From Sporomusaceae bacterium (lineage in GTDB: Bacteria > Bacillota > Negativicutes > Sporomusales > UBA7701), in the NCBI GenBank assembly GCA_031460455.1, contig JAVKTQ010000016.1:3429-67428 (forward strand): a stretch of 64,000 bases of DNA, in the 5' to 3' direction. The translations under genes and the position numbers were made by a program. Positions 2,416 through 39,055 of this stretch are shown in pieces (within the stretch, counting starts at the first letter, position 1; each line of letters begins with the position of its first letter). Under the pieces are notes generated by a model, which was not told the origin of the DNA, did no database searches, and saw only the letters and a list, made by a program, of their open reading frames with translations.

Positions 2416-3102
2416 CTGAAAGTACTGTTCTGGGATATCGACGGCACCCTCCTCCGCACGGCCAAGGCCGGCCTGTTCGCTTTCCGGCAGGCGACCGAGG
2501 ACCTTTACGCCGCCAGCCCCGATTTCAACACAGTTAAAACGGCCGGCATGACCGACTGCCATATCGCCGCCCAGATCATCGCCCTGGCGAGCGGGCGGGA
2601 GCCCCGGCCGGGGGAGACCGAGGCGCTGGTGGAGCGGTATATAGCGTTGCTGCCCGAGCATCTTGAGGCCCGCCGGGGGTTCGTCATCCCGCCGGTGGCC
2701 GACATACTGGAGTATCTCGCCGGCGAACCGGGCTATGTGTCGCTGCTGCTGACCGGCAACACGTCGGCCGGCGCCCGCGCCAAACTGACAAGCTACGCCA
2801 TCGCCCATTATTTCGATTTTGCGGCGAGCGCGTTCGGCGACGACTGCCTGAGCCGCTCGGACATCGCCGCCCGGGCGCTGGCGAGCGCGCGGCAGCGCTA
2901 CCCGGCGGTGCCGCCTGAGGATATATTCGTGATCGGCGACACGCCGAACGATATCAGCTGCGGCAAGGCGATTGGCGCCCGTACGGTGGCGGTGGCCACC
3001 GGCACGTACACGGCGGCCGAGCTGGCGGCCCACTCGCCCTGGTGGGCGGTGGAACAGCTGCCCGCCCCGGCCGATTTCGCGGCGAAACTGGCGGAGAAAT
3101 GA
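2416..3102 (+). CDS. HAD-superfamily hydrolase (phosphoglycolate phosphatase-like)
   Basis: Motif I DIDGT, LLTGN, motif IV IGDTPND. The start is probably CTG 2416 (AAGGAG at 2401-06); the exact start is uncertain. Confidence 0.9.
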   Translation: MKVLFWDIDGTLLRTAKAGLFAFRQATEDLYAASPDFNTVKTAGMTDCHIAAQIIALASGREPRPGETEALVERYIALLPEHLEARRGFVIPPVADILEYLAGEPGYVSLLLTGNTSAGARAKLTSYAIAHYFDFAASAFGDDCLSRSDIAARALASARQRYPAVPPEDIFVIGDTPNDISCGKAIGARTVAVATGTYTAAELAAHSPWWAVEQLPAPADFAAKLAEK

Positions 3103-3135
3103 AAAAACCTCCCGGACAAAAGTCCGGGAGGTTTT
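3102..3135. terminator. Bidirectional intrinsic terminator (copy 1)
   Basis: AAAACCTCCCGGAC-AAAA-GTCCGGGAGGTTTT, 14-bp stem including A/T tracts. Confidence 0.85.
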
Positions 3136-3142
3136 GTGTGTG

Positions 3143-3291
3143 CCGTATCTCCGAATTGCCGGGACCGTTTAGAAGGTCCCAGATGCAAGGCGCACCGGAA
3201 AAGCGCGCCGCGCCGCGTACTCGGACGTACGCAAGCAAGCGCTTTGAGGAGCAACGCCGCAGATGGGGCCTTATCAACGGTCCCCCTGTAC
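3143..3291. repeat. Structured dispersed repeat, copy 1 (MITE/REP-like)
   Basis: GGGACCGTT...AACGGTCCC outer arms (26-bp imperfect IR, 21/26), core CCAGATGCAAGGCGCA...GCGTAC-N6-GTACGC...GAGGAGCAACGCCGCAGATGG. Homologous to 4845, ~14107 and 36346. Confidence 0.9.
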
Positions 3292-3304
3292 ACTGCCTGA
3301 GGAT

Positions 3305-4687
3305 TTATTCGCCGGCCAGCTTCAGGCCGTACAGGGCGGCCTCGTCGTCGGGGTTTATCCTTATCGCCGCCCGGAAGGCTTGCGCGGCTTCGGCCGGGAG
3401 GTCGACCTTGAGGTTGTGGTAGCCGTCCTTCATATGGTTGGCGTAGTGGTCGAGCAGCTTCCCCTCGGCGTCGCAGTAATAGCCGAACGACCTGACGATA
3501 TTTAGCCGCGGATAATAAACGCCCACCCCGGACGCCACCCACCGCCCGCTCTTATCGATGAACCCTTTCCTGTCGCCGTCTTCCGCCCGCACTATGCCGT
3601 TTTCAAACCAATGGGCAGCGTAAGAGAACCGCGGCGTGATCGCCAGCTCACCCTTGGTATTGATAAATCCTTGCTTTCCGGCTGTCGATACCCAGGCCAT
3701 CCCTTCGGCGAAATTAACGCCATTATCAAACCTGGGCGTGTCAAGCAGGCGGCCGGTGCTGTCAAGGTACCCATACTCGCCCTTGCCGTCCTTAAAAAAG
3801 CGCCAGATGACTAGAAACGGCTCGCCCTTGATATCAGGGTACCCGGCCGAAACGAACTGCGGCTCCACAACCATCCGCCCCGTATTATCAATGAACCCTA
3901 CCAACCCATCCGCGGTCCAGACCGCCGCCAGCCCTCCCCAAAAGCGCAGAGCGTTCTTATATTGCGGCTCAATGACCATTCGGCCGGTACGGTCGACGAA
4001 GCCCCACTTGCCGTCCACCATCACCGCCGCCAGTCCCTCGGAGAAAGAACGGTTCGACTCCAGATCGAACTGCGGCGGAATAACAAAATTGCCGAGCGTG
4101 TCGATAAAGCCTTTTTTATCACCCACTCTCACCAGCGCCAGGCCTTCGCTGAAGGACCGCTCCCCGTCGAACTGCGGCTCGACGGCCACCCGCCCGCCGG
4201 CGCTCACGAAGCCGAACTTGCCGTTCTCTTCGACGACGGCCATACCTTCGACCATGCGGTCGATCTCAACAAAACGAGGCTCGGTCACCATCGTTCCCGT
4301 CTGGTCGATTATGCCAATCTTGCCGTTTAACACTACCCGGTAAAGATTATCGCTGAAGTTGTAGGCATTTTCGTAGCGGGGCTGAATAACAACCTGCCCC
4401 GCCCGATCCGCAAATCCCCATTTACCGTCGAGCTTAACGGCCAGGTATGAATCGTTTTTCTCCAGCTCCGCAGCATCGTTGGGCTCCATCTTAATCGCTT
4501 CGAACCGCGGCGGAATAAGCCATCTGCCGGTGGCGATCTCGATCAGGCCTGTCCGTTCCCCCTGCGGCAGCCGGACAGTGAACGTGCGGGCGTCGTTGTA
4601 ATTGTAGCGGGAGCTTTCTCCGCGCGCGGACGGGCATGTCGCCCCCATCAGCAGTACCGCCATCAGGCCGCATAGTAACCTTTTCAT
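3305..4687 (-). CDS. Secreted WG (KWG)-repeat protein with a short C-terminal TPR-like helix pair
   Basis: N-terminal signal peptide, about 7-8 repeats of G(K/L)(W/F)GF(I/V)D..G...I.PQF..A..FSEGLA.V, GGGAGG RBS. Confidence 0.92.
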   Translation of the reverse strand: MKRLLCGLMAVLLMGATCPSARGESSRYNYNDARTFTVRLPQGERTGLIEIATGRWLIPPRFEAIKMEPNDAAELEKNDSYLAVKLDGKWGFADRAGQVVIQPRYENAYNFSDNLYRVVLNGKIGIIDQTGTMVTEPRFVEIDRMVEGMAVVEENGKFGFVSAGGRVAVEPQFDGERSFSEGLALVRVGDKKGFIDTLGNFVIPPQFDLESNRSFSEGLAAVMVDGKWGFVDRTGRMVIEPQYKNALRFWGGLAAVWTADGLVGFIDNTGRMVVEPQFVSAGYPDIKGEPFLVIWRFFKDGKGEYGYLDSTGRLLDTPRFDNGVNFAEGMAWVSTAGKQGFINTKGELAITPRFSYAAHWFENGIVRAEDGDRKGFIDKSGRWVASGVGVYYPRLNIVRSFGYYCDAEGKLLDHYANHMKDGYHNLKVDLPAEAAQAFRAAIRINPDDEAALYGLKLAGE

Positions 4688-4763: not shown

Positions 4764-4803
4764 TTTCCGCTGTCGAATTCCCCGCCAAGCTGACGGAGAA
4801 ATG

Positions 4804-4839
4804 AAAAAACCTCCCGGACTTTTGTCCGGGAGGTTTTTT
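4804..4839. terminator. Bidirectional intrinsic terminator (copy 2, loop inverted relative to copy 1)
   Basis: AAAACCTCCCGGAC-TTTT-GTCCGGGAGGTTTT. Confidence 0.85.
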
Positions 4840-4844
4840 GTGTG

Positions 4845-5052
4845 CCGTATCTTCGAATCGCCGGGACCGTTCAGAAGGTCCCAGATGCAAGACGCACCGC
4901 AGGCTGACACCACCGTTTCCTCCGCGACATTGTTTAGATACGTTGTTTGCACAGGATTGGTATAACAGCATCGCGCGTACACGAACGTACGCTGAGGATG
5001 GCAGCCGAGGAGCAACGCCGCAGATGGGGCCTTATCAACGGTCCCCCTGTAC
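4845..5052. repeat. Structured dispersed repeat, copy 2, with a 63-nt internal insert
   Basis: Same arms and core as copy 1; extra segment 4912-4974 replaces GGAA of copy 4. Confidence 0.9.
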
Positions 5053-5910
5053 GCTGGCAGAAGACTTAAGGGCGGGGATGGCGTAGCGGGCGACTATGGC
5101 CGCCAATATAATCGCGCCGCCGGCGAGCGACCACGGGCCTGGCATTTCGCCGAGGAGGAGGAAGACCCAGATGGGGTTTAAGATGGGCTCGATCATGGTG
5201 ATGATGGTGGCCTCTAACGCGGTGACGTGCTTGATGGCGACGGAGTAGAGGACGTAGGAGAGGCCGAGCTGGAAGCAGCCGAGGAGGACGATGGCCCCCC
5301 AGCCGGCAAGGCTGGGACCGCCATCGAGCATGAAGGGGATGCCGCCGACGAAGGCGAGGATGTTGCCGAGCAGGACGGAGCCGAAGGGGGAGCCGTCTTT
5401 TTGTTTGCGCATCGCCAGGGCCATGACGGTCATGCTCATGCCGCTGGCGACGGCCAGCAGGTTGCCGAGCAGGTGGCCGGCCTCCATCTGGTCCTGGAAG
5501 AAGAGGATCATGCCGCCGAAGACGAGGCCGATGGTGAGCCAGTCGAGGGCGGTGGTTTTCTCCTTGAGGAACCAGGCGCCGAAGAGGGCCACCCAGATGG
5601 GGGCGGTGTACTGGAGGACAATGGCGTTGGCGGCGGTGGTGAGCTTGGTGGCGCTGACGAACATCATGACGGTGGCTACGTAGCCTAAAGCGCCCAGGAC
5701 CTGCACTTTGCTGATGTTGAGCGGCTGGCCGCGGAAGGCCAGGCGGATGACGATGGCGGCGATGAGGCTGCGCGCGCCGGAGATGGCCAGCGGGTGCCAG
5801 TCGACCGATTTGATGAGGAGGCCGCCGCTGCTCCAGAGGACGGCGGTGATGACGAGCAGGATGAGGGCGCGAAAGTGCTCCGATTTGCCGGAGCCTGCGA
5901 GCAGGTTCAC
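5035..5910 (-). CDS. EamA/DMT family transporter
   Basis: 10 hydrophobic segments, ANAIVLQYTAP and IEPILNPIWV motifs, GTG start at 5910. The longer ORF start at 6132 is a shadow extension. Confidence 0.92.
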   Translation of the reverse strand: MNLLAGSGKSEHFRALILLVITAVLWSSGGLLIKSVDWHPLAISGARSLIAAIVIRLAFRGQPLNISKVQVLGALGYVATVMMFVSATKLTTAANAIVLQYTAPIWVALFGAWFLKEKTTALDWLTIGLVFGGMILFFQDQMEAGHLLGNLLAVASGMSMTVMALAMRKQKDGSPFGSVLLGNILAFVGGIPFMLDGGPSLAGWGAIVLLGCFQLGLSYVLYSVAIKHVTALEATIITMIEPILNPIWVFLLLGEMPGPWSLAGGAIILAAIVARYAIPALKSSASVQGDR

Positions 5911-14061: not shown

Positions 14062-14093
14062 AAAAAGGGCGCTCGTATGAGCGCCCTTTTTTT
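14062..14093. terminator. Bidirectional intrinsic terminator
   Basis: AAAAAGGGCGCTC-GTAT-GAGCGCCCTTTTTTT. Confidence 0.88.
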
Positions 14094-14106
14094 ATTTGCG
14101 GCTGTT

Positions 14107-14260
14107 AGAGCCGTTCTTTCAACGCGCAGCGCTCGAACGTACGCTAGCAAGCGCCCGCAACGCCAAGAGCGCAAGTTCTTGGTGCTTTAGTGCCTAGAAC
14201 TGCGGCCTACCCCTTGCGGGTGCAACGCAAATGGGGTGCTATCAACGGCCCCCATTGTAT
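14107..14260. repeat. Structured dispersed repeat, copy 3 (left arm truncated, nested 58-nt insert)
   Basis: GAGCCGTT...CGAACGTACGCTAGCAAGCG...GCAACGC[58 nt]GCAACGCAAATGGGG...ATCAACGGCCCCCATTGTAT. Confidence 0.75.
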
Positions 14261-16958: not shown

Positions 16959-17035
16959 TGGGGAGTCGCCAAGCTGGTTAAGGCATCGGACTCTGACTCC
17001 GACATTCGAGGGTTCAAATCCTTCCTCCCCAGCCA
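16959..17035 (+). tRNA. tRNA-Gln (anticodon CTG)
   Basis: Acceptor TGGGGAG/CTCCCCA, anticodon arm TCGGA-CTCTGAC-TCCGA, GGTTCAAATCC T-arm, encoded CCA. Confidence 0.97.
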
Positions 17036-17039
17036 TCAT

Positions 17040-17115
<76 letters not shown>

Positions 17116-28562: not shown

Positions 28563-28586
28563 GGTCTGGCCCCCCGATGGCTTTTT

Positions 28587-28655
28587 CACTCGTAGCCGGC
28601 AATTTACGGTTGCCTGTAGAAACTTCCGGGCCGTATCCCCAAAATTATACGAGAG
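28587..28655 (-). ncRNA. Purine (guanine-type, C74) riboswitch
   Basis: CUCGUAUAA...GAUACGG...AGUUUCUAC...CCGUAAA...GGCUACGAG, with P1/P2/P3 and kissing loops in consensus positions. Confidence 0.93.
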
Positions 28656-28764
28656 TATTTAGTTGCGCTTTTATTTTACCTTTGACGACAAATAGTGTCA
28701 ACGAGGGGAACGGGACGCCCCGCTCCCGCGGCGAAAATAAAAAACAGGCTGCCGCCTGTTTTTC

Positions 28765-29224: not shown

Positions 29225-31396
29225 TCAGGCTAATTTCCGCATCAGCCGCATGCCGTTGAGGGTAACGAGCAGCGACGCCCCAGTGTCGGCAAAGACAGCC
29301 AGCCACAAGTTGGCGAAGCCGGCGAAGGTCAGGGCGACGAAGACCGCTTTGACGGCGACGGCGAAGACGATGTTCTCCTTGATGACCGTAAGTGTTTTGC
29401 GGCTGAGCCGGATGACGTACGCCAGCTTGCCGAGATCGTCGGCCATGAGGGCGATGTCGGCCGTCTCCAGGGCGGCGTCCGAGCCGGCAACCCCCATAGC
29501 GACGCCGACATCGGCGGCCGCCAGAGCCGGGGCGTCGTTGACGCCGTCTCCCACCATCGCCACGCCGCCGTAGCGGCCGGCAAGGTCTTTTACGGCCTTT
29601 ACTTTGTCGGCGGGCATGAGATCGCTGTAGACGCCGTCGAGTTTGAGGCGGGCAGCGATGGCTTCGGCCGTCCGGCGGTTGTCGCCGGTGAGCATGGCCA
29701 CATGACCGACGCCGGCCCGGCGCAGCGCGGCGACGGCGGCGGCGCTGTCGCCGCGCAGCGTGTCGGCGACAGCGACTACGCCATAGAGCGCATCCGCGGC
29801 GCCGACCAGCATCGCTGTCTTGCCTGCCGCTTCGAGTCCCGAGAGCATTGCCTCGTGTCGGGCAAGATCATGCCCCAGACCAGTGAACAGGCGGGCGCTG
29901 CCGACATAGACGACAGTTCCTTCCACTTCAGCCTGGGCCCCCTGGCCTACCAGGGCCCGAAAAGCTGACGCCGGCTTGAGTTCGAGCCCGGCGGCGGCCG
30001 CAGCGATTGCCCGGGCCATGGGGTGCTCGGACCATTTCTCGACCGACGCGGCCAGGGCGAGCAGCTGGTCGGCGGCAAAGCCGTCGAACGGGATGACGTC
30101 GGTGATCTGGGGCCGGCCGTGGGTAAGTGTGCCGGTTTTATCGAAGGCCACCGCACGGAGGGCGCCCAGCTTCTCCAGGTAGGCGCCGCCCTTGATCAGC
30201 ACGCCCCGCCTGGAGGCGTTGCCGATGGCGGCGACGACCGACACCGGTGTGGAGATGACGAGGGCGCAGGGACAGGAGATGACGAGCAGCACCAGTCCCT
30301 TGTAGAACCAGGGGGCGAAGGGCTGGCCAAATGCCAGCCAGGGCAGAACCATGACGGCGGCGGCGGCTGTCAGCACGGCCGGCGTGTAGTAGCGGGCGAA
30401 TTTATCGACGAACTGCTGGGAGGGCGCGCGCTGGGCCTGGGCCTCCTCGACCAGATGCATGATTTTGGCGAGGGTGGAGTCGGCGGCTGCTTTGGCGACT
30501 TCGACCTCCAGCACGCCATACTGGTTTACGGTGCCGGCGTATACTGTGTCGCCGGCCGCCTTTTCCACCGGCAGCGATTCGCCGGTGAGGGCTGCTTCGT
30601 CGACGGCCGAATGGCCGCTGCGCACGACGCCGTCGAGCGCGACCCTTTCCCCCGGCCTGACGACGATAACGCTGCCGGGAGCGATCGCCGTCACCGCCAG
30701 CCGCTCTTCTGCGCCGCCGGCAAGCACCGTCGCCTCGGACGGGGCCAGCTCCATCAACGCCCGCACCGCCAGGCGGGTCTTGTCGAGCGTGTAGGTCTGG
30801 AGCGTATTGCCGAGAGAGAACAGGAAGGCCACCGTGGCCCCCTCGCTCCACTCGCCGAGGGCCGCCGCGCCGATCACGGCGACAGTCATGAGGAAGTTCA
30901 TGTCGAGTGTCAGCGACTTCAGGCCGGACAGGCCGCTGCGGGCAGCGTGCCAGCCTCCGGCAAGTGCGGCCAGCGCGTAGACAGGCACCGTCCAGGCGGT
31001 GGCGGCATCCAGCAGATCGAGGCTGGCGGCCACTGCCAGCAGCAGCCCGGACGCGAGCGTCGCCAGCGTCCGCGGCTCGCGCCGCCAGCCGGGCACCGGC
31101 TCGGTCGGGGCGTCGGCCCGCCGGGCGCTGTAGCCGGCCTTTTCTACCGCTTTTATTATCGCCTGGTCACTGAGGGTGTGGGCGACCGCCAGTTTGGCGG
31201 TCGCAAAATTCACCGTCGCCTGCCGCACACCGGCCAGGGCGGCGATCCTTTTTTCGAGTTTGGCGGCGCAATCGGCGCAGTCCAGGCCGCCGAGGAGGTA
31301 GACGCTCATCCCCTCCTCCGCCGGGACGGCGCCGGCGGGCGCAACGGCGGCGCCGCAGCCGCCGCAGCCGCAGGCTTTTTCGATCATTTGCCTCAT
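29225..31396 (-). CDS. cadA: P1B-type heavy-metal (Cd/Zn/Pb) translocating ATPase
   Basis: HMA LDCADC, TGES, CPC, DKTGT, SEHP, GDGVND. Confidence 0.97.
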
Positions 31397-31397
31397 C

Positions 31398-31766
31398 CTA
31401 TCTGTGTTTGATGTGTTCGATGCCTTGGGCCATCAGGACGGCGATGTGTTCGTCGTCGAGGGAGTACCAGACCATCCTGCCGTCGCGGCGGTATTTGACG
31501 AGCCTGGCCCCCCGCAAGAGGCGGAGCTGGTGGGAAACGGCCGACTGGCCCATGCCGACGACGGCCGCGATGTCGCACACGCACAGTTCGCGCAGGGACA
31601 GGGCCTGCAGCATCTTGACCCGCGTCGGGTCGCCGAGGATCTTGAATATCTCGGCAAGCTCGCGGGCGTCCGTCTCGGTCAGCGCCTCGGCCCGGGCGGC
31701 GCGGATGACTTCCGGATGCAAACAGAGCTCTTCGCAAACAGCGTTATCGGTATCGTTATCGGGCAC
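31398..31766 (-). CDS. ArsR/SmtB metalloregulator (CadC/ZiaR-like)
   Basis: [26 protein letters not shown], alpha5 DDEH...EH site. Confidence 0.96.
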
Positions 31767-31784
31767 GGCAATTCACCTCTATAT

Positions 31785-31835
31785 ATGAATAAGTGTTCAT
31801 GTGTCTATATTATCTTGTTTTGTAGCCGACGTCAA
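31785..31835 (-). promoter_or_regulatory. arsR-cadA promoter with SmtB-type operator
   Basis: TTGACG, 17 bp, TAATAT; ATGAA-N6-TTCAT inverted repeat at 31785-31800. Confidence 0.8.
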
Positions 31836-31954
31836 GATTAGACTGCATTGTCGAAAGTAAAGGATTTGCGCAAATTATGTCGAAGAAATTAAAAGTATTG
31901 ACATTATTTTCTATTGGTTCTGGTATTTTACCATGCCGAAGGAGATGATCTTCC

Positions 31955-33670
31955 TTGCAGTTTTTCAAAAACCTCAGCATCGCCAACAAACTTTCCGTTC
32001 TCGTATTTATCGCCGCTTTCTTTGTGGCGACGATCGCCGTCACCGGCTACTTCTTCCTTGCCAAGACCGACGCGGTGATGCAGGATCTGAACAAGAACGA
32101 GCTACGGGCCGTGAAGCTGATCGACGAGACGCAGATCGAGCTCAAGACCGCCCAGGCGATTGTGCTCGAATATCTGCTGGCCAGGGACGTCGATCGCAAG
32201 AAGGCGCTGCTGGCCGACATGAAAACCCGCGGCGAGAAGGTCGACTTCTATCTGCTGGAACTCGACAAGACCAACCTCAGCGAGGATCAGCGCCGCAACC
32301 TGGAGCTGCTCACGTCAATGCTGAACAGCTACCGCAGCGGGCGGGACCAGGTGCTGAAACTGACGGGCGATGGCAAACTGAACGAGGGCATCCTCATATA
32401 TACGTACCAGTACTCCCCTATCCTCGACGGCATCAACAAACAGCTTGGCTATATTTCGGATGAATTCAACGAGAAGGCCCGCGTCGCCCATGAGCAGAGC
32501 TCGCGGGGCGTGGCGGTGGCCAGCATGACGCTGACCGCCATCGGGCTGGCGGCGCTGCTGATCGTCATTGCCCTCGGCCTGACAATCGCCCGCATGGTTG
32601 CAAGGCCACTCAAGCAGGTGGCTGCCGCCGTGAGCGAGATCGCCGCCGGCAATCTCGCCAAGAAGGCGCTCGCCGTGGACTCCCGCGACGAAGCTGGCCA
32701 GGTGGCGCTCGCCATCAATACGATGACCGATAACCTGCGCGGGCTGATGAGGCAAGTGGCCGAGTCGGCCGAACAGTTGGCGGCGTCGAGCGAGCAGCTT
32801 AACGCCAGCGCCGATCAGGCCGCGGTGACGGCCACCCAGGTAGCCCAGTCGATCTCCGATGTCGCCCAGGGTACGGCGACCCAGTTGCGGGCCGTCGAGG
32901 AAAGCTCCGCAGCCGTCGAGCAGATGTCGGCCACCATCCAGCAGGTGACGGCCAACGCCGAGATTGTCGCCGGCACCTCGGCACAGGCCGCCGAAGCCGC
33001 CGGCAATGGCGCCGAGCAGATCGCCACGGCGGTGAGCCAGATCGCCAATATAGAAAAGACGGTCGCCGATTCGGCCCAGATCGTCCAGACGCTGGGCGAC
33101 CGCTCCAAGGAGATTGGCCAGATTGTGGACACCATCTCAAGCATCGCCGGCCAGACCAACCTTCTCGCCCTCAACGCCGCCATCGAGTCGGCCCGTGCCG
33201 GGGAGGCCGGTCGCGGGTTCGCCGTTGTGGCCGAGGAGGTGCGCAAGCTGGCCGAGCAGTCGCAGGAGGCTTCGAAACAGATCGGCGAACTGATAAGCGC
33301 CATCCAGGCCGACACCGACAAGGCGGTCGCTGCGATGGAGAGCGGCAAGCACGAGGTCAAAATCGGCAGCGGGGTGGTCAACAGCGCCGGGCAGGCGTTC
33401 GAACACATCTTCACCCTCGTCAACCAGGCATCCACCCAGTCGAAGGATATGTCGCTCGCCATTCGCCAGATGGCCGGCGGTAGCCAGCAGATCGTGGCAT
33501 CGATTAAGGCCATCGATACGGTGAGCAAGACGACGGCGGCCGAAACGCAGACCGTCTCGGCGTCGACCGAGGAACAGTCGGCCACGATGGAGGAGGTCGC
33601 GGCCTCCAGCCAGGGCCTGGCGCAGCTTGCGCAGGGACTGCAGTCCGCGCTGCGCAGATTCACGGTATAA
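31955..33670 (+). CDS. Methyl-accepting chemotaxis protein (4HB sensor, HAMP)
   Basis: 2 TM segments, [42 protein letters not shown]. Confidence 0.97.
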
Positions 33671-33685
33671 GATAATGACGTAGGC

Positions 33686-33715
33686 AAAAAGGGGCTGCCA
33701 GACAGCCCCTTTTTT
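33686..33715 (+). terminator. Terminator after the MCP gene
   Basis: AAAAAGGGGCTG-CCAGA-CAGCCCCTTTTT. Confidence 0.85.
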
Positions 33716-33786
33716 GTATTCAGCCTGAATTTGCCACTAATCGCCGTAATGGACGGAGGGCAAAATAGCGCCAAGGAGGTGAGCGC

Positions 33787-33918
33787 ATGGCCAAGTCCAG
33801 CAAATCGGGCTGCTGCGACAGCAGCGCCGACAAGAGCCGTTCCGCGGCGTTATCCGACTTCTCCGCCGAAATATGCCCGTCGTCTCCGTCCAAGAAGAAT
33901 AAGGACAAGTCGAAATAA
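33787..33918 (+). CDS. 43-aa small basic protein MAKSSKSGCCDSSADKSRSAALSDFSAEICPSSPSKKNKDKSK
   Basis: AAGGAGGT RBS, ATG 33787, TAA 33916-18, GC hairpin GGAAGGCCGCGAC/GTCGCGGCCTTCC just downstream; below the ORF-track cutoff. Confidence 0.7.
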   Translation: MAKSSKSGCCDSSADKSRSAALSDFSAEICPSSPSKKNKDKSK

Positions 33919-33996
33919 TACCCGGAAGGCCGCGACGGAGGTCGCGGCCTTCCCTCTTCCGTCTGTGCCGGCGCGGGAATATTTTGCCGTCCGGCG

Positions 33997-34061
33997 TTTA
34001 CAAGCCCGCCCCGGCATAGTATAATACAGTTAGTTAACCGTTTCACCGTATATGGTTAACG
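33997..34061 (+). promoter_or_regulatory. bioB promoter with BirA operator
   Basis: TTTACA, 17 bp, TATAAT (34020-25); AGTTAACC-N14-GGTTAACG at 34032-34061 fits the BirA palindrome. Confidence 0.85.
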
Positions 34062-34119
34062 TTTTTTAATGCCAATATTGTAAACCGTCATAGTGCACAT
34101 AGTTAACAAGGAGGCTGCG

Positions 34120-35118
34120 ATGAGTATCCAACTGATAACCGCCCTGGGTGAGAAGGTGCTGAGCGGCGCGGCGCTGAGCTTTTCCGAGGCGATGGACCTC
34201 ACGCGGGTCGGCGCGGCCGACGTCCCGCTGCTGATGGCGATGGCCAGCAAGGTGCGCGCCGAGTTCTGCGGCGCTGCCGTCGATACCTGCGAGATCGTCA
34301 ACGCCCGCTCCGGCAATTGTTCGGAGGATTGCCGGTTTTGCGCCCAGTCGGCCCACCACCGGGCGGCTATCGCCATCCATCCCCTCCTGGACGAGGCGGC
34401 GCTGCTGGCGGCGGCGAAAACGGCCGAGAGCGACGGCGCGCGGCGTTTCTCGATCGTCACCGCGGGTGCGGGCATGCAGGATGACGACGATTTCCCCCGC
34501 GTGCTGGCGGCGATAAAACGGATCAAACAAGAGACGGGGGTAATCCCCTGCTGTTCGCTGGGAGTGCTCGACGCCAGTCACTTCGCCGCACTGAAGGCGG
34601 CCGGCGTCACCCGCTACCACCACAACCTGGAGACGGCGGAAAGCCACTATCCGGCGATCTGCACCACCCACTCCTGGCAGGAGCGGGTGGACACGGTGAA
34701 GCGGGCCAAGGCGGCCGGGCTGGAGGTGTGCTCGGGGGGCATCATCGGCATGGACGAGAGCTGGCGCCAGCGCGTCGAACTGGCTTTCACCCTCAGGGAG
34801 CTTGATGTCGATTCGGTTCCCGTCAATATACTGAACCCTGTGCCCGGCACCGCCCTTGAGGAGCAGCCGCCGCTGCCGCCACTGGAAATTTTCCGGACAC
34901 TGGCCATTTTCCGCCTCCTCCTCCCTGCCAAGACGATCCGCTACGCCGGCGGCCGGGAGAAAGCGCTCGGCGACCTCGTGCCCCTCGGCCTGCTGGCCGG
35001 CGTCAACGGCATGCTCATCGGCAACTACCTCACGACCGCCGGCCGGGGCGCCGAGCGCGACATCGCCGCCGCCCGCGGCCTCGGACTGAGACCGTTGTCC
35101 TCCTTGGACGCCTGTTAA
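34120..35118 (+). CDS. bioB: Biotin synthase
   Basis: NARSGNCSEDCRFCAQS radical SAM motif, YHHNLET, CSGGIIGM, GNYLTT; AAGGAGG RBS. Confidence 0.97.
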   Translation: MSIQLITALGEKVLSGAALSFSEAMDLTRVGAADVPLLMAMASKVRAEFCGAAVDTCEIVNARSGNCSEDCRFCAQSAHHRAAIAIHPLLDEAALLAAAKTAESDGARRFSIVTAGAGMQDDDDFPRVLAAIKRIKQETGVIPCCSLGVLDASHFAALKAAGVTRYHHNLETAESHYPAICTTHSWQERVDTVKRAKAAGLEVCSGGIIGMDESWRQRVELAFTLRELDVDSVPVNILNPVPGTALEEQPPLPPLEIFRTLAIFRLLLPAKTIRYAGGREKALGDLVPLGLLAGVNGMLIGNYLTTAGRGAERDIAAARGLGLRPLSSLDAC

Positions 35119-35275
35119 TCAGCCTCCGTTTCGCGGTTTTCGCCAACCATCGGGGCGGCGACCGTGCTAATAAACCCGCCTTGGGCGGGTTTTTCTTTTT
35201 GCGAGCCGATAAAGGATTTAGTTGCCGTTACGGTTAAGATAATAGGACTAATACGACGGCAGGAGGCGTTTTCTC

Positions 35276-35512
35276 ATGGGTGAAGGAGATTGCCTTGTAA
35301 TTCCGGGAGTGTACCGCCACTACAAGGGGAATATGTACCGGGTGATAGGCGAGGCCACCCACAGCGAGACGATGGAGCGGCTGGTCGTTTACCAGGCGCT
35401 GTACGGCGAACGCGGCCTGTGGGTGAGGCCGTGGGCGATGTTTTGCGAGACGGTGACCGTGGGCGGCGAGGAGAAAGCGCGTTTCGCTTATGTCGGGGCC
35501 GACGGGGCCTGA
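35276..35512 (+). CDS. DUF1653 domain protein
   Basis: PGVYRHYKG..Y.V...A.HSET.E.LVVYQALYGE..LWVRP..MF. Confidence 0.95.
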   Translation: MGEGDCLVIPGVYRHYKGNMYRVIGEATHSETMERLVVYQALYGERGLWVRPWAMFCETVTVGGEEKARFAYVGADGA

Positions 35513-36258
35513 CGGATTTTCGCCGCTTTGACGGCGGCGACCCGTTTGCGGCGGTCGAGGCCGTGCTCCTTGGTGAGATACCTGGCAAGGCCGTCGATAT
35601 CGGGGAAGACGCTGTATTCGTTGAGCCCGGCGAGATGGAGGAAGGCGCGCGCCTCGGGAATCGCGGCGGCGGGCAGGGGTATCTGGGTGACGCAGTCGGG
35701 GCAGATTTCCTCAAGGGGCTTTTCGATGGCGCCGTGGATGGTGAAGTGGCCCTTCTGGGCGAAGATGCGGGGGTTCTGCATGGTGGGGAAGATGGCGAGC
35801 GGGTGCTTAAGCCTTTTGCCCAGGTAGAGCACCTTCTCGTGCTCGTGGTCGTAGTCGACGGCGTCGGACTGCACGAGCAGGCCGTGGCCGGTGGCCTTGT
35901 AGTTAAGTTTGTCTGGCTCGAGGACCCAGATGCAAGGCGCGTCGGGCTTGCCGCTCACGGCGAAGTACAGGGCGACGGCGAAGGTGGTCGTCCAGTCGAG
36001 GAGGCGCGTGGGGATGCCGGCGTGCCGCATCTCGAAGAGGGTCTCGATCGGCTTGAGCGACTGGGTGTTGACGATGGGCTTGGCGAACGAGAAGAAGTCG
36101 AAGAAGACGTTGCACTCGGTGTACCTTTTCCGCCTGACCCGGAAGAGGCTGGGCAGCAGGGTGAAACAAGCGCTGGGGCAGCCGCGGTAGAAGGGGTACG
36201 GCACCCCTTTGGTCGCCGTCTGCACGCCCTGGAGGAATTCTTGCCACGCATCGCTCAT
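35488..36258 (-). CDS. FRG domain protein
   Basis: YRG, MRHAGIPTRLLDWTT...VALYFA, NPRIFAQKGHFTI, SVFPDIDGLA. Confidence 0.92.
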   Translation of the reverse strand: MSDAWQEFLQGVQTATKGVPYPFYRGCPSACFTLLPSLFRVRRKRYTECNVFFDFFSFAKPIVNTQSLKPIETLFEMRHAGIPTRLLDWTTTFAVALYFAVSGKPDAPCIWVLEPDKLNYKATGHGLLVQSDAVDYDHEHEKVLYLGKRLKHPLAIFPTMQNPRIFAQKGHFTIHGAIEKPLEEICPDCVTQIPLPAAAIPEARAFLHLAGLNEYSVFPDIDGLARYLTKEHGLDRRKRVAAVKAAKIRQAPSAPT

Positions 36259-36345
36259 GTGCTCACTCTCCCCTACCGGTTATTGTTTCCCGATTTCGTC
36301 GCAATAACAATATTTCCCTTTATGAGCTCCTCTCCCCTCCCCCAT

Positions 36346-36496
36346 CCGTTATTCTCTGAATTGCCGCGGCCGTTCAGAAGTGCCCAGATGCAAGGCGCAC
36401 CGGAGGCTGACACCGGAAGCGTACACGCACGTACGCTGAGGATGGCAGCCGAGGAGCAACGCCGCAGATGGGCGCTGCTGGGCGGCCGTAATGTAC
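36346..36496. repeat. Structured dispersed repeat, copy 4
   Basis: Same core as copy 2 without the insert; arms changed to GCGGCCGTT/GGCGGCCGT; shared flanks CCGT.AT.CT..GAATTGCCG and TGTAC. Confidence 0.9.
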
Positions 36497-36498
36497 AA

Positions 36499-36527
36499 AG
36501 AAGCCCCCGCGTAGAGCGGGGGCTTCT
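36499..36527 (-). terminator. metY terminator
   Basis: AGAAGCCCCCGC/GCGGGGGCTTCT 12-bp stem directly after the stop. Confidence 0.8.
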
Positions 36528-36528
36528 G

Positions 36529-37818
<1,290 letters not shown>

Positions 37819-37849
37819 CTAGAATTAATAATTATAGTTTTGCCGAGTA

Positions 37850-39055
37850 TCAGGGGTAGTTTTCCGCGACGAGGCGGGCGCCAAAGTAGGCCAGCCGCGG
37901 AGCGCGGAAGATGGATGACAGCCAGGGCATTCGCACCGGCAGGGCGGTGCCGACGAATTCGCGCAGGATGGGTTTGAGGAGGTCGAAGTCGATCAGGAAG
38001 CCGTCATGGCCGTGGGGGCTGTCGACTTCGGCGTATTCCGCCCGCACGCCGAGGCTTTTCAGTATTTCGACGAGTTCTATCTGTTGGTAGGCGGGGTAGA
38101 GGATGTCCGAGGTGACCCCGGCCACGAGGACTCTGGCCTCGATGCGGGCCAGGGCCGCCCGGTAGGAGGCGTGGCCCATCCCCAGGTCGTAGAGGTCGAG
38201 GGCCCTGAGCAGGCAGAGGTAGGAGTTGGCGTCGAAGCGCTGCACCAGGCACTGTCCCTGGTAGTCGAGGTAGTTCTCGATCTCGAACTGCCCGTTGCGC
38301 GTCTTGCGGGCGAATTTGGCGGCCATGGAGGGTTCGCTCTGGTAGGTTATCATGCCGACGCCGCGGGCGAGCGCCAGGCCCTGGACGGGGCCGGGTCCGC
38401 CGTAGTAGTCGCCGCCCCGCCATTCGGGGTCGAGCATCACGGCCTGGCGGCCGACGCGGTTGTAGGCGATGGCCTGGGCCGAGGCGTAGCCGGGAGCGGC
38501 CAGGGCGGCGACGGCTTCAGCGAAACCGGGGTAGGTGACCGCCCACTCCAGCGCCTGGGCGCCGCCCATCGAGCCGCCGATGACCAGCGAAAGGCGGTTG
38601 ATGCCCAGCGCTTCGAGAAGCCGTTTCTGGACCCGGACCATGTCGCGGATGGTCACTTCGGGGAAGGAGGCGCCGTAAGGCCGGCCGGTGGCCGGGTCGG
38701 GCGAGGCGGGGCCGGTGGTGCCCTGACAGCCGCCGAGGACGTTGGCGCAGATGACGAAGAAGCGGTCGGTGTCGATGGGGCGGCCGGGGCCTACGAGGAG
38801 GTCCCACCAGCCTTCCTCGTCGTTGTCGTTATGGGCGGCGCAGTGGCTGTCGCCGGTGAGGGCGTGACAGACAAGGACGACGTTGTCTTTGTCGGGGGCA
38901 AGGGCGCCGTAGGTTTCGTAGGCCACCGTCACTTCGGGGAGGGCGCCGCCGAGTACGAGCGCGAGCGGCCGCTCGGGGGTGGCCACGGTGGCGAATTTCA
39001 TGTAGGGCCGGTATTTTATGCCGGGGAAAAAGGTCTGCGGGTAAGCGGTCTGCAT
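37850..39055 (-). CDS. metX: Homoserine O-acetyltransferase
   Basis: CHALTG, NVLGGCQG, GGSMGG, RFDANSY, HGHDGFL; ATG 39055. Confidence 0.96.
   Translation of the reverse strand: MQTAYPQTFFPGIKYRPYMKFATVATPERPLALVLGGALPEVTVAYETYGALAPDKDNVVLVCHALTGDSHCAAHNDNDEEGWWDLLVGPGRPIDTDRFFVICANVLGGCQGTTGPASPDPATGRPYGASFPEVTIRDMVRVQKRLLEALGINRLSLVIGGSMGGAQALEWAVTYPGFAEAVAALAAPGYASAQAIAYNRVGRQAVMLDPEWRGGDYYGGPGPVQGLALARGVGMITYQSEPSMAAKFARKTRNGQFEIENYLDYQGQCLVQRFDANSYLCLLRALDLYDLGMGHASYRAALARIEARVLVAGVTSDILYPAYQQIELVEILKSLGVRAEYAEVDSPHGHDGFLIDFDLLKPILREFVGTALPVRMPWLSSIFRAPRLAYFGARLVAENYP

Follow-up and report, generated by a model that had tools for sequence, protein, structure and literature searches.

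A folded repeat of probable ERIC/YPAL type in an uncultured anaerobe, with relatives in several bacterial phyla

We describe a folded repeat present in four copies in a 64,000-nucleotide stretch of DNA (hereafter the window) from a Sporomusaceae bacterium (GenBank assembly GCA_031460455.1, contig JAVKTQ010000016.1, positions 3,429 to 67,428 of the forward strand). The copies are probably a non-autonomous miniature insertion element of the same type as the ERIC and YPAL repeats of enterobacteria. What is new is the breadth of the family to which they belong and the constancy of its folded core across phyla.

Copies in the window and their common fold

A preliminary description of this DNA had placed four copies in the window. 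All four were found again, three of them intact and the third decayed, its left core lost as had been stated. The copies and the hairpins and inserts attached to them are as follows (bit scores are those of a covariance model of the family).

3102-3135: two-way intrinsic terminator hairpin of the HAD-hydrolase gene, directly 5' of copy 1
3143-3291, + strand: copy 1, intact; model match 3160-3286, 128.8 bits; unpaired 5' leader CCGTATCTCCGAATTGCCG at 3143-3160, rod at 3161-3284, tail CCCTGTAC
4806-4839: terminator hairpin 5' of copy 2, the same as that of 3102-3135 with the loop flipped from AAAA to TTTT
4845-5052, + strand: copy 2, intact; model match 4862-5047, 86.5 bits
about 4912-4974: extra module of about 63 nucleotides in copy 2, found at the same position at four loci of other genomes (L014, L037, L076 and L097)
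14062-14095: two-way terminator hairpin directly 5' of copy 3
14107-14260, + strand: copy 3, decayed; outer stem and right arm kept, left core deleted, right core GCAACGC-AAATGG; no covariance model match
14164-14221, + strand: nested insert of about 58 nucleotides in copy 3, an unrelated second small element
36322-36496, + strand: copy 4, intact, with its long leader included (36346-36496 in the preliminary description); model match 36365-36491, 116.7 bits; long leader GAGCTCCTCTCCCCTCCCCCATCCGTTATTCTCTGAATTGCCG, rod at 36366-36488, tail TAATGTAC
36500-36530: terminator hairpin of the cysteine/methionine pyridoxal-phosphate (PLP) enzyme gene (36529-37806, minus strand), adjoining the 3' tail of copy 4

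A unit consists of an unpaired 5' leader of 15 to 45 nucleotides, a rod of about 125 nucleotides and a short 3' tail. On the + strand, copy 1 folds as a single rod of -70.2 kcal/mol (z -3.96) and copy 4 as one of -78 kcal/mol (z -5.4), both with the pairings that had been named before. The arms of the rod change freely so long as pairing holds. Set into them is a fixed core, which reads CCAGAUGCAAGGCGC in the 5' arm and AGCAACGCCGCAGAUGG in the 3' arm and has bulged A residues. The rod ends in an apical hairpin, GCGUAC-loop-GUACGC. The core words CCCAGATGCAAGGCGCACC and the word GCGTAC-N6-GTACGC are found in numbers far above those expected from shuffled sequence, and the conservation claimed for the internal loops and the apical hairpin holds. 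The window copies belong to a subtype with the leader CCGT..GAATTGCCG and the tail TGTAC.

The covariation of the stems, first read from the window alone, is strong in a larger sample. We aligned 78 distinct standard copies, from the window and from other genomes, with MAFFT, an alignment that is not fitted to structure. RNAalifold predicts 34 pairs on these copies, of which 23 show compensatory double changes. Paired cells make up 92.7% of the total, against 31.6 to 42.2% when the partners are slid, and double-change cells number 490 against at most 169; values as high were obtained in none of 500 shuffles. On the + strand, G.U and U.G pairs are often seen (at three pairs, UG 31 and 26 times and GU 22 times), so that the opposite strand would have A.C mismatches at these places, in line with the earlier statement that such pairs work on one strand only. 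Likewise, the covariance model, which was built from the 78 copies, gives one copy 128 bits on the forward strand and 29.7 bits on the reverse strand. Finally, the two core arms differ from each other alike in every lineage, the left arm having a bulge of AA and the right arm one of AAC. This constant asymmetry suggests that it is the folded strand that is recognised, rather than two equal double-stranded repeats.

The optional module of about 63 nucleotides (ACCGTTTCCTCCGCGAC...TTGCACAGG..GGTATAACAGCATCG) lies 5' of the apical hairpin, at the same spot in copies that differ in inner stem type, and its own middle varies with pairing kept. Copy 2 is a case in point: its outer arms and flanks are identical to those of copy 1, and its inner stem is of a different type. 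In addition to what had been noted before, the two copies have about 75 nucleotides upstream and about 25 downstream in common. They are parts of a direct repeat of about 260 bp (3065-3320 and 4767-5075) that brackets a WG-repeat gene (3305-4687; this convergent gene ends at 3305). Each segment of this repeat contains the last bases of the HAD-hydrolase gene, the terminator, the element and about 25 nucleotides more, the inner part of the element being of a different subtype in the two segments.

One further candidate in the window was rejected. An exact match to the left core, a 16-mer at 35925-35940, lies inside the FRG-domain gene, and the orthologous gene at locus L081, in a related genome, has nearly the same words. 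We therefore regard it as coding sequence and not as a copy; the resemblance is due either to chance or to capture long ago.

Distribution and turnover of the family

An exact scan with the 18-mer AGCAACGCCGCAGATGGG, run on one genome per species, gave at least 120 loci (L-numbers denote loci of other genomes). Among the loci listed are several metagenome-assembled genomes (MAGs) of Selenomonadales, Sporomusaceae and Bacillota, with many copies each, Desulfobacterales, including the isolates Desulfospira joergensenii and Desulfobacter vibrioformis, and also Geobacteraceae, Omnitrophota, Planctomycetia, Myxococcota and others. Although the left core was not part of the search word, it lies at most 320 nucleotides upstream in 109 of 126 matches. 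The gap between the two cores falls into three classes: 7 to 8 nucleotides in mini copies, 52 to 59 in standard copies and 105 to 118 in copies with the extra module. The covariance model found 155 matches in about 1 Mb of fetched DNA, in Selenomonadales, Sporomusaceae, Desulfobacterales (the two isolates included), Geobacteraceae, Omnitrophota, Planctomycetia and others. Of the 'orphan' cores, the majority are diverged copies; the others are low-stringency matches in apparent coding sequence.

Searches of plasmid, phage and viral collections found no copies, and eight viral matches to a 17-mer were not the element. Rfam returned nothing relevant for window, Desulfobacter-type or Geobacter-type copies, either up to E = 10 or at the gathering threshold, and a literature search by sequence words gave no match.

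Tandem arrays also exist, with three copies head to tail in L077:6303-6652. In two contigs, one of Omnitrophota (L009) and one of Deltaproteobacteria (L016), the element lies directly against a tRNA gene of the opposite strand, at the 3' end of that gene. A separate repeat, GCGCGGATAGCTCAACTAAGGCTCGGGC..., is the immediate neighbour of truncated copies at several Selenomonadales loci (L042, L094, L112, L067 and L034); it folds into a long perfect hairpin, of -39 kcal/mol in L034.

With its bulged bases, its unpaired spacer in the centre and an apical part whose length varies (core gaps of 7 to 118 nucleotides), the rod recalls the folded single-strand recombination sites of integrons, attC, which mark the ends of gene cassettes. 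Several loci have same-strand copies about 1.2 kb apart, and copies 1 and 2 bracket one gene. However, the boxes of the element read GTT...AAC on both strands, whereas those of attC read AAC...GTT (RYYYAAC ... GTTRRRY), and we reject this explanation because of the wrong box order. Moreover, the genes between copies are not cassettes but, in several genomes, a conserved operon, target duplications are present, and no integrase was seen; we give this scenario next to no credence.

Element copies come and go between close relatives. The related MAG at L081 is collinear with window positions 30333-38332 at 87 to 91% identity, and copy 4 is absent, together with its leader, from the orthologous site. 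The reverse is also seen: L081 has a copy at a site where the window has none, and this insert has a whole 29-nucleotide terminator hairpin repeated on both sides. In two MAGs whose flanks are 91 to 96% identical, shared sites differ in subtype, in inner module, in a nested insert of 55 nucleotides, or in the presence of the element itself. Such differences in content at shared sites indicate a fast turnover in which parts are exchanged between copies; the different inner stems of copies 1 and 2, within identical arms and flanks, are a similar case in the window.

A mini copy at L048:1957-2034 lies just outside the stretch of L048 that aligns with the window from 39317 onward. Its neighbourhood corresponds to that of a SAM riboswitch in the window, where there is no copy.

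The second small element takes part in this turnover. It is 55 to 58 nucleotides long (GCGCAAGTTCTTGG...CTTGCGGGT, two hairpins) and is found repeatedly in or beside the right core, in either orientation (L083, L087 and L004, and in the opposite orientation L023 and L034); at orthologous sites it may be present in one genome and absent from the other. In copy 3 of the window it is bordered by a 7-nucleotide repeat, GCAACGC (14157-14163 and 14222-14228).

The preliminary description had reported no consistent target-site duplication. This stands for the window copies; relatives do duplicate their target, over a variable length of 6 to 29 nucleotides and often as a whole terminator hairpin. At least 12 copies of one subfamily (leader CAGnnTGTAGACAAAG) have direct repeats of 14 to 29 nucleotides, each of them a terminator hairpin, at fixed offsets, and the join falls in a T run. 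Desulfobacter-type copies have A/T-rich duplications of 6 to 15 nucleotides (TAATTA, TAACTAT, TAATTAG, TAAATAAC and one of about 15 nucleotides). The window copies are of a subtype, or of an age, in which no duplication is visible. The insertion sites are A/T runs that adjoin or span hairpins, intrinsic terminators among them, and they usually follow closely on a stop codon.

Could such duplications result from the spread of RNA copies? A bacterial retroelement resembling the short interspersed elements (SINEs) and using a borrowed reverse transcriptase, with priming at T or A runs, would account for several features: duplications of variable length that start and end in the A/T runs flanking terminator hairpins, good structure on one strand only, a swapping of modules that resembles template switching, and the presence of element sequence in RNA libraries (see below). 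However, 5'-truncated copies are lacking, the short forms being internal hairpin deletions, there is no A-tail, and no reverse transcriptase was found in the flanks. Some DNA transposons, of the IS1182 and IS1634 groups, also make variable duplications, and we know of no SINE-like RNA-copy mechanism in bacteria. We thus hold this scenario to be very unlikely.

Surroundings, mobilisation and transcripts

As had been described, all four window copies adjoin a terminator and come after the 3' end of a gene on the minus strand. Their neighbours are ordinary genes, coding for a HAD hydrolase, a WG-repeat protein, an EamA transporter, a GGDEF protein (whose gene ends at 14260, beside copy 3), an FRG-domain protein and the cysteine/methionine PLP enzyme. 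In the family at large, too, a terminator hairpin stands directly 5' of many copies. Since callers based on open reading frames (ORFs) are unreliable in this DNA of 62% G+C, gene strands were assigned by a home-made GC-phase test, checked on 8 known genes. By this test, the gene on the 3' side is convergent with the element in 59 of 72 cases, the strand of the upstream gene is split 28 to 29, and adjacent copies are on the same strand in 26 of 30 pairs. From these counts the usual order is a stop codon, the element in antisense, and a terminator. GC skew follows gene strand here, and is therefore uninformative on the replication strand.

Among the recurrent neighbour proteins of 120 loci we found only common families (response regulators, ABC ATPases, HD-GYP proteins), and none of the copies examined has a transposase as its neighbour. 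A full-length insertion sequence (IS) with left and right cores 0.5 to 3 kb apart was not found in about 1 Mb of flanking DNA, where no pair of cores brackets an ORF.

The preliminary description named HUH systems (IS200/IS605, RAYT/REP) among those that select for structure. On this view the element would be REPIN-like and would move as single-stranded DNA, the enzyme being an HUH (Y1) transposase (either a RAYT or a TnpA of the IS200/IS605 kind) with a single gene elsewhere in the genome. Several traits agree with this. Structure rather than sequence is conserved in the arms, one strand is favoured, with G.T pairs tolerated, every lineage has the same differences between the asymmetric core and its inverted partner, a GTAG-like word is present in the leader of the type-1 subfamily, and the same-strand bias of copies within a locus, given above, is as expected. 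Single-strand transposition of the IS200/IS605 kind, however, leaves no target duplication, whereas duplications of 6 to 29 nucleotides are plain in the relatives, and it is for this reason that the scenario is weakened. In addition, neither a Y1 gene nor a RAYT flanked by these repeats was seen in the flanks (the part of each genome that was scanned), and the favoured strand is mostly antisense to the neighbouring genes, which, if genes run with replication, is the wrong side for a mechanism acting on the lagging-strand template. An HUH enzyme is a poor fit, and appears to us a decidedly improbable mover.

Element sequence is present in RNA libraries. No RNA run was found that holds the window's own organism, and the metatranscriptome evidence concerns a related MAG. 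In two digester metatranscriptomes, the element has a word depth of 208 and 85 and the flanking genes one of no more than 10, and many metatranscriptome contigs diverge at the element borders. Element words occur in 18 further RNA runs. These data show the presence of the element in RNA libraries, irrespective of strand and of the abundance of individual copies. One transcript-derived contig, matching L011, joins two copies with 11 letters between them.

We also considered a structured non-coding RNA, either a small RNA or a cis-acting element of 3' or 5' untranslated regions, the copies of which would be kept by host selection. Strong covariation, conserved unpaired nucleotides, G.U pairs on one strand only, a core kept across phyla and the occurrence in RNA libraries are all expected of such an RNA; some copies lie 15 to 25 nucleotides ahead of a start codon on the same strand, and the copies in Geobacter have been called predicted regulatory short RNAs (Aklujkar et al. 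2009, PMC2700814). On the other hand, the element has no consistent gene partner or orientation, and filled and empty sites, target duplications and nested inserts are marks of a mobile element. The different subtypes at orthologous sites, in flanks 91 to 96% identical, are unlike the evolution of a locus-specific regulator. Neither a scan nor inspection by eye found a promoter in the leader. Mobility and the lack of a constant partner gene weaken this explanation in particular, and we think it improbable.

If the copies are a miniature insertion element, as we favour, a trans-acting enzyme would nick the DNA twice, either at the base of a hairpin or within an A/T stretch. The core, conserved and asymmetric, may then be a docking site, on the folded single strand, for the mobilising enzyme, a host RNase or an RNA-binding protein. 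Once inserted, the hairpin would be transcribed with its neighbours and could alter the stability or processing of their mRNA, as is reported for ERIC and YPAL in Yersinia; altered stability or processing of neighbouring transcripts is the likely effect on the host.

Other RNA features of the window are as follows.

16959-17112, + strand: two tRNA genes
28573-28672, minus strand: purine riboswitch, 71.6 bits
39151-39252, minus strand: SAM riboswitch, 95.6 bits

Relation to known repeat families

Members of the family have been published from Geobacter metallireducens, for which 24 predicted short RNA elements, Gmet_R1001 to R1024, with the palindrome GRCGTAGCGCTGCTACGCC, have been listed (Aklujkar et al. 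2009, PMC2700814). The list was made by BLAST matching, and gives no structure, mobility or wider relatives. By sequence comparison, we assign these elements to the family as diverged members, whose printed sequence is in reverse complement. Rod and apical hairpin (GGCGUAGC...GCUACGCC) agree with those of the window family, and the core, although it has diverged (CCAGAUCG... / ...CGAGAUGG), can still be recognised as related. The strand that matches the window family folds better in 17 of 19 of them, and the Geobacteraceae copies of our scan bridge the two groups.

A Desulfobacter-type copy matched E. coli by BLAST, which led to a small E. coli family of rods of 120 to 150 nucleotides, at pheM-pheS (L130), qseG-qseE (L131) and nuoL-nuoM (L129), with a median of 4 places per genome and 1 to 6 copies. 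Scored with a hidden Markov model (HMM) of the low-GC family, these rods reach 12 to 21 bits, on one strand only, and none of 500 shuffles scores as high. Besides the long rod itself, the tip, CCGGAGCGUAC-UUAA-GUACGUGAGGAUU, is near-identical to that of Desulfobacter-type copies. By contrast, they are without the CAGAUGC/GCAGAUG helix and do not match the covariance model. They are probably the K-12 repeats called 'RSA' (150 bp, 6 copies), a name taken from a table; the annotation of the K-12 record lists no repeat features. The nuoL-nuoM copy appears polymorphic among strains, since only 724 of the 5434 records that match have it at an identity of 99% or higher; the pheM-pheS copy sits between the attenuator and pheS.

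The closest relatives of the family are probably the ERIC and YPAL repeats of enterobacteria. The ERIC repeats (also IRU or RU-1, 127 bp) are said to have been described by Sharples and Lloyd in 1990 and by Hulton et al. in 1991. Local alignment of the family to an ERIC copy gives a score of 61, against 33 +/- 4 for 300 shuffles (maximum 47, none reaching the observed score) and 28 for the reverse complement. Both elements are of similar size (a rod of about 125 nucleotides and about 127 bp) and form one long imperfect hairpin, of which the matching strand folds better. Three blocks occur in the same order and at the same places: UUGCA..AAGGCG in the 5' arm, GGAGC-UUAC-loop-GUAAG-UGA at the tip and AACGC..CGCAG..AUG in the 3' arm. 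ERIC lies in transcribed intergenic DNA near gene ends, and all four window copies abut a stop codon or a terminator. Short and long forms of ERIC, with inserts at fixed internal sites, were reportedly described by Sharp in 1997, and resemble what is seen in the window family.

There are also clear differences. ERIC is A/T-rich and has 7-bp terminal repeats with TA at both ends, all of which the window copies lack. It duplicates TA, where the window copies show no duplication and their relatives one of 6 to 29 nucleotides, and it is without the tandem G.A and the unpaired leader of the window family. The host range differs as well: recent reviews place ERIC only in Enterobacteriaceae and Vibrionaceae, whereas the present family has copies in Selenomonadales, Desulfobacterales, Geobacteraceae and others. 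According to the literature, ERIC affects mRNA decay in a manner that depends on orientation, and the mover of ERIC-type elements has not been identified.

The YPAL repeats (RU-2, Yersinia palindromic sequences of about 168 bp) were reportedly characterised by De Gregorio et al. in 2006. Aligned end to end with type-1 copies, a single YPAL sequence, as printed by Delihas, scores 108.5 against 79 +/- 5.4 for 500 shuffles, none of which reaches it (z 5.4; about 3 in local alignment). Its termini, TTGACAAAGT ... CAGTCTGAA, match those of the type-1 subfamily, which is found in related genomes and is not the subtype of the window. YPAL is longer, and its middle part differs. Like the present family, it is not A/T-rich, has no TA ends and has internal inverted repeats. 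The literature gives duplications of 3 to 26 bp at or beside dyad symmetry, filled and empty sites between close species, and co-transcription with upstream genes. Variable duplications at hairpins are thus a trait in common with the relatives of the window family (at least 12 copies with a duplicated terminator hairpin), though not with the four window copies themselves. The preliminary description gave a decayed MITE, with IS1182-like ends, as its alternative. Members of the IS1182 family, such as IS1272, also target terminator hairpins with no sequence consensus; IS1272, however, removes part of the hairpin and makes no duplication, and since no IS bearing the ends of the element was found in the flanking DNA, any link would be conjectural.

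Several points weigh against a mobile element of ERIC/YPAL type. The four window copies show no clear target duplication, and in the flanks examined no transposase, reverse transcriptase or HUH gene recurs beside copies or bears their ends. The best-folding strand is usually antisense to the preceding gene, which is awkward for a role inside the mRNA of that gene, and the GC-phase test behind the strand counts made one error among the 450-nucleotide segments of the 8 known genes. Copy number may by itself account for the high word depth in RNA, and the contigs are strandless and may contain DNA. The link to ERIC consists of alignment statistics and a shared block order; a sequence HMM (nhmmer) gives no match, and the covariance model, whose best match in an ERIC-bearing locus is ERIC itself, gives it 9.6 bits (E 0.18). 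For YPAL, finally, the two relative orientations score 108.5 and 102.5, which does not settle the orientation.

Beyond the likeness of individual families, one may tentatively ask whether ERIC, YPAL, the RSA-like rods of E. coli, the Gmet_R10xx elements and the window family form one ancient superfamily, with members throughout the bacteria, in which the folded asymmetric core docks a single conserved machine. We rate this as possible but doubtful. Candidates for such a machine are a structure-specific transposase, with nicks made at the foot of hairpins, and a partner acting at the RNA level. Its discovery would account for the movement of ERIC-type elements, a question of 35 years' standing even though strain typing by ERIC-PCR is in use around the world. 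A co-occurring mobilising gene can be searched for by comparing genomes, from different phyla, that have many or few copies of the element. Relatives in Negativicutes, Desulfobacterales, Geobacter and other phyla would also make the family one of the most widely spread of small bacterial repeats, and duplicated terminators, with hairpins set between stop codon and terminator, bear on 3'-end formation, operon punctuation and genome annotation.

The preliminary description had proposed an unannotated REP/MITE-like element (MITE, miniature inverted-repeat transposable element) or a non-coding RNA. The first part is borne out, in that the repeat is a MITE-like hairpin element, kept at the level of the single strand and absent from Rfam. 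It is not unprecedented, since it is probably kin to ERIC and YPAL and its Geobacter branch was listed in 2009. The window copies are thus not a new kind of element but probably very distant members, in an uncultured anaerobe, of the kind represented by ERIC and YPAL.

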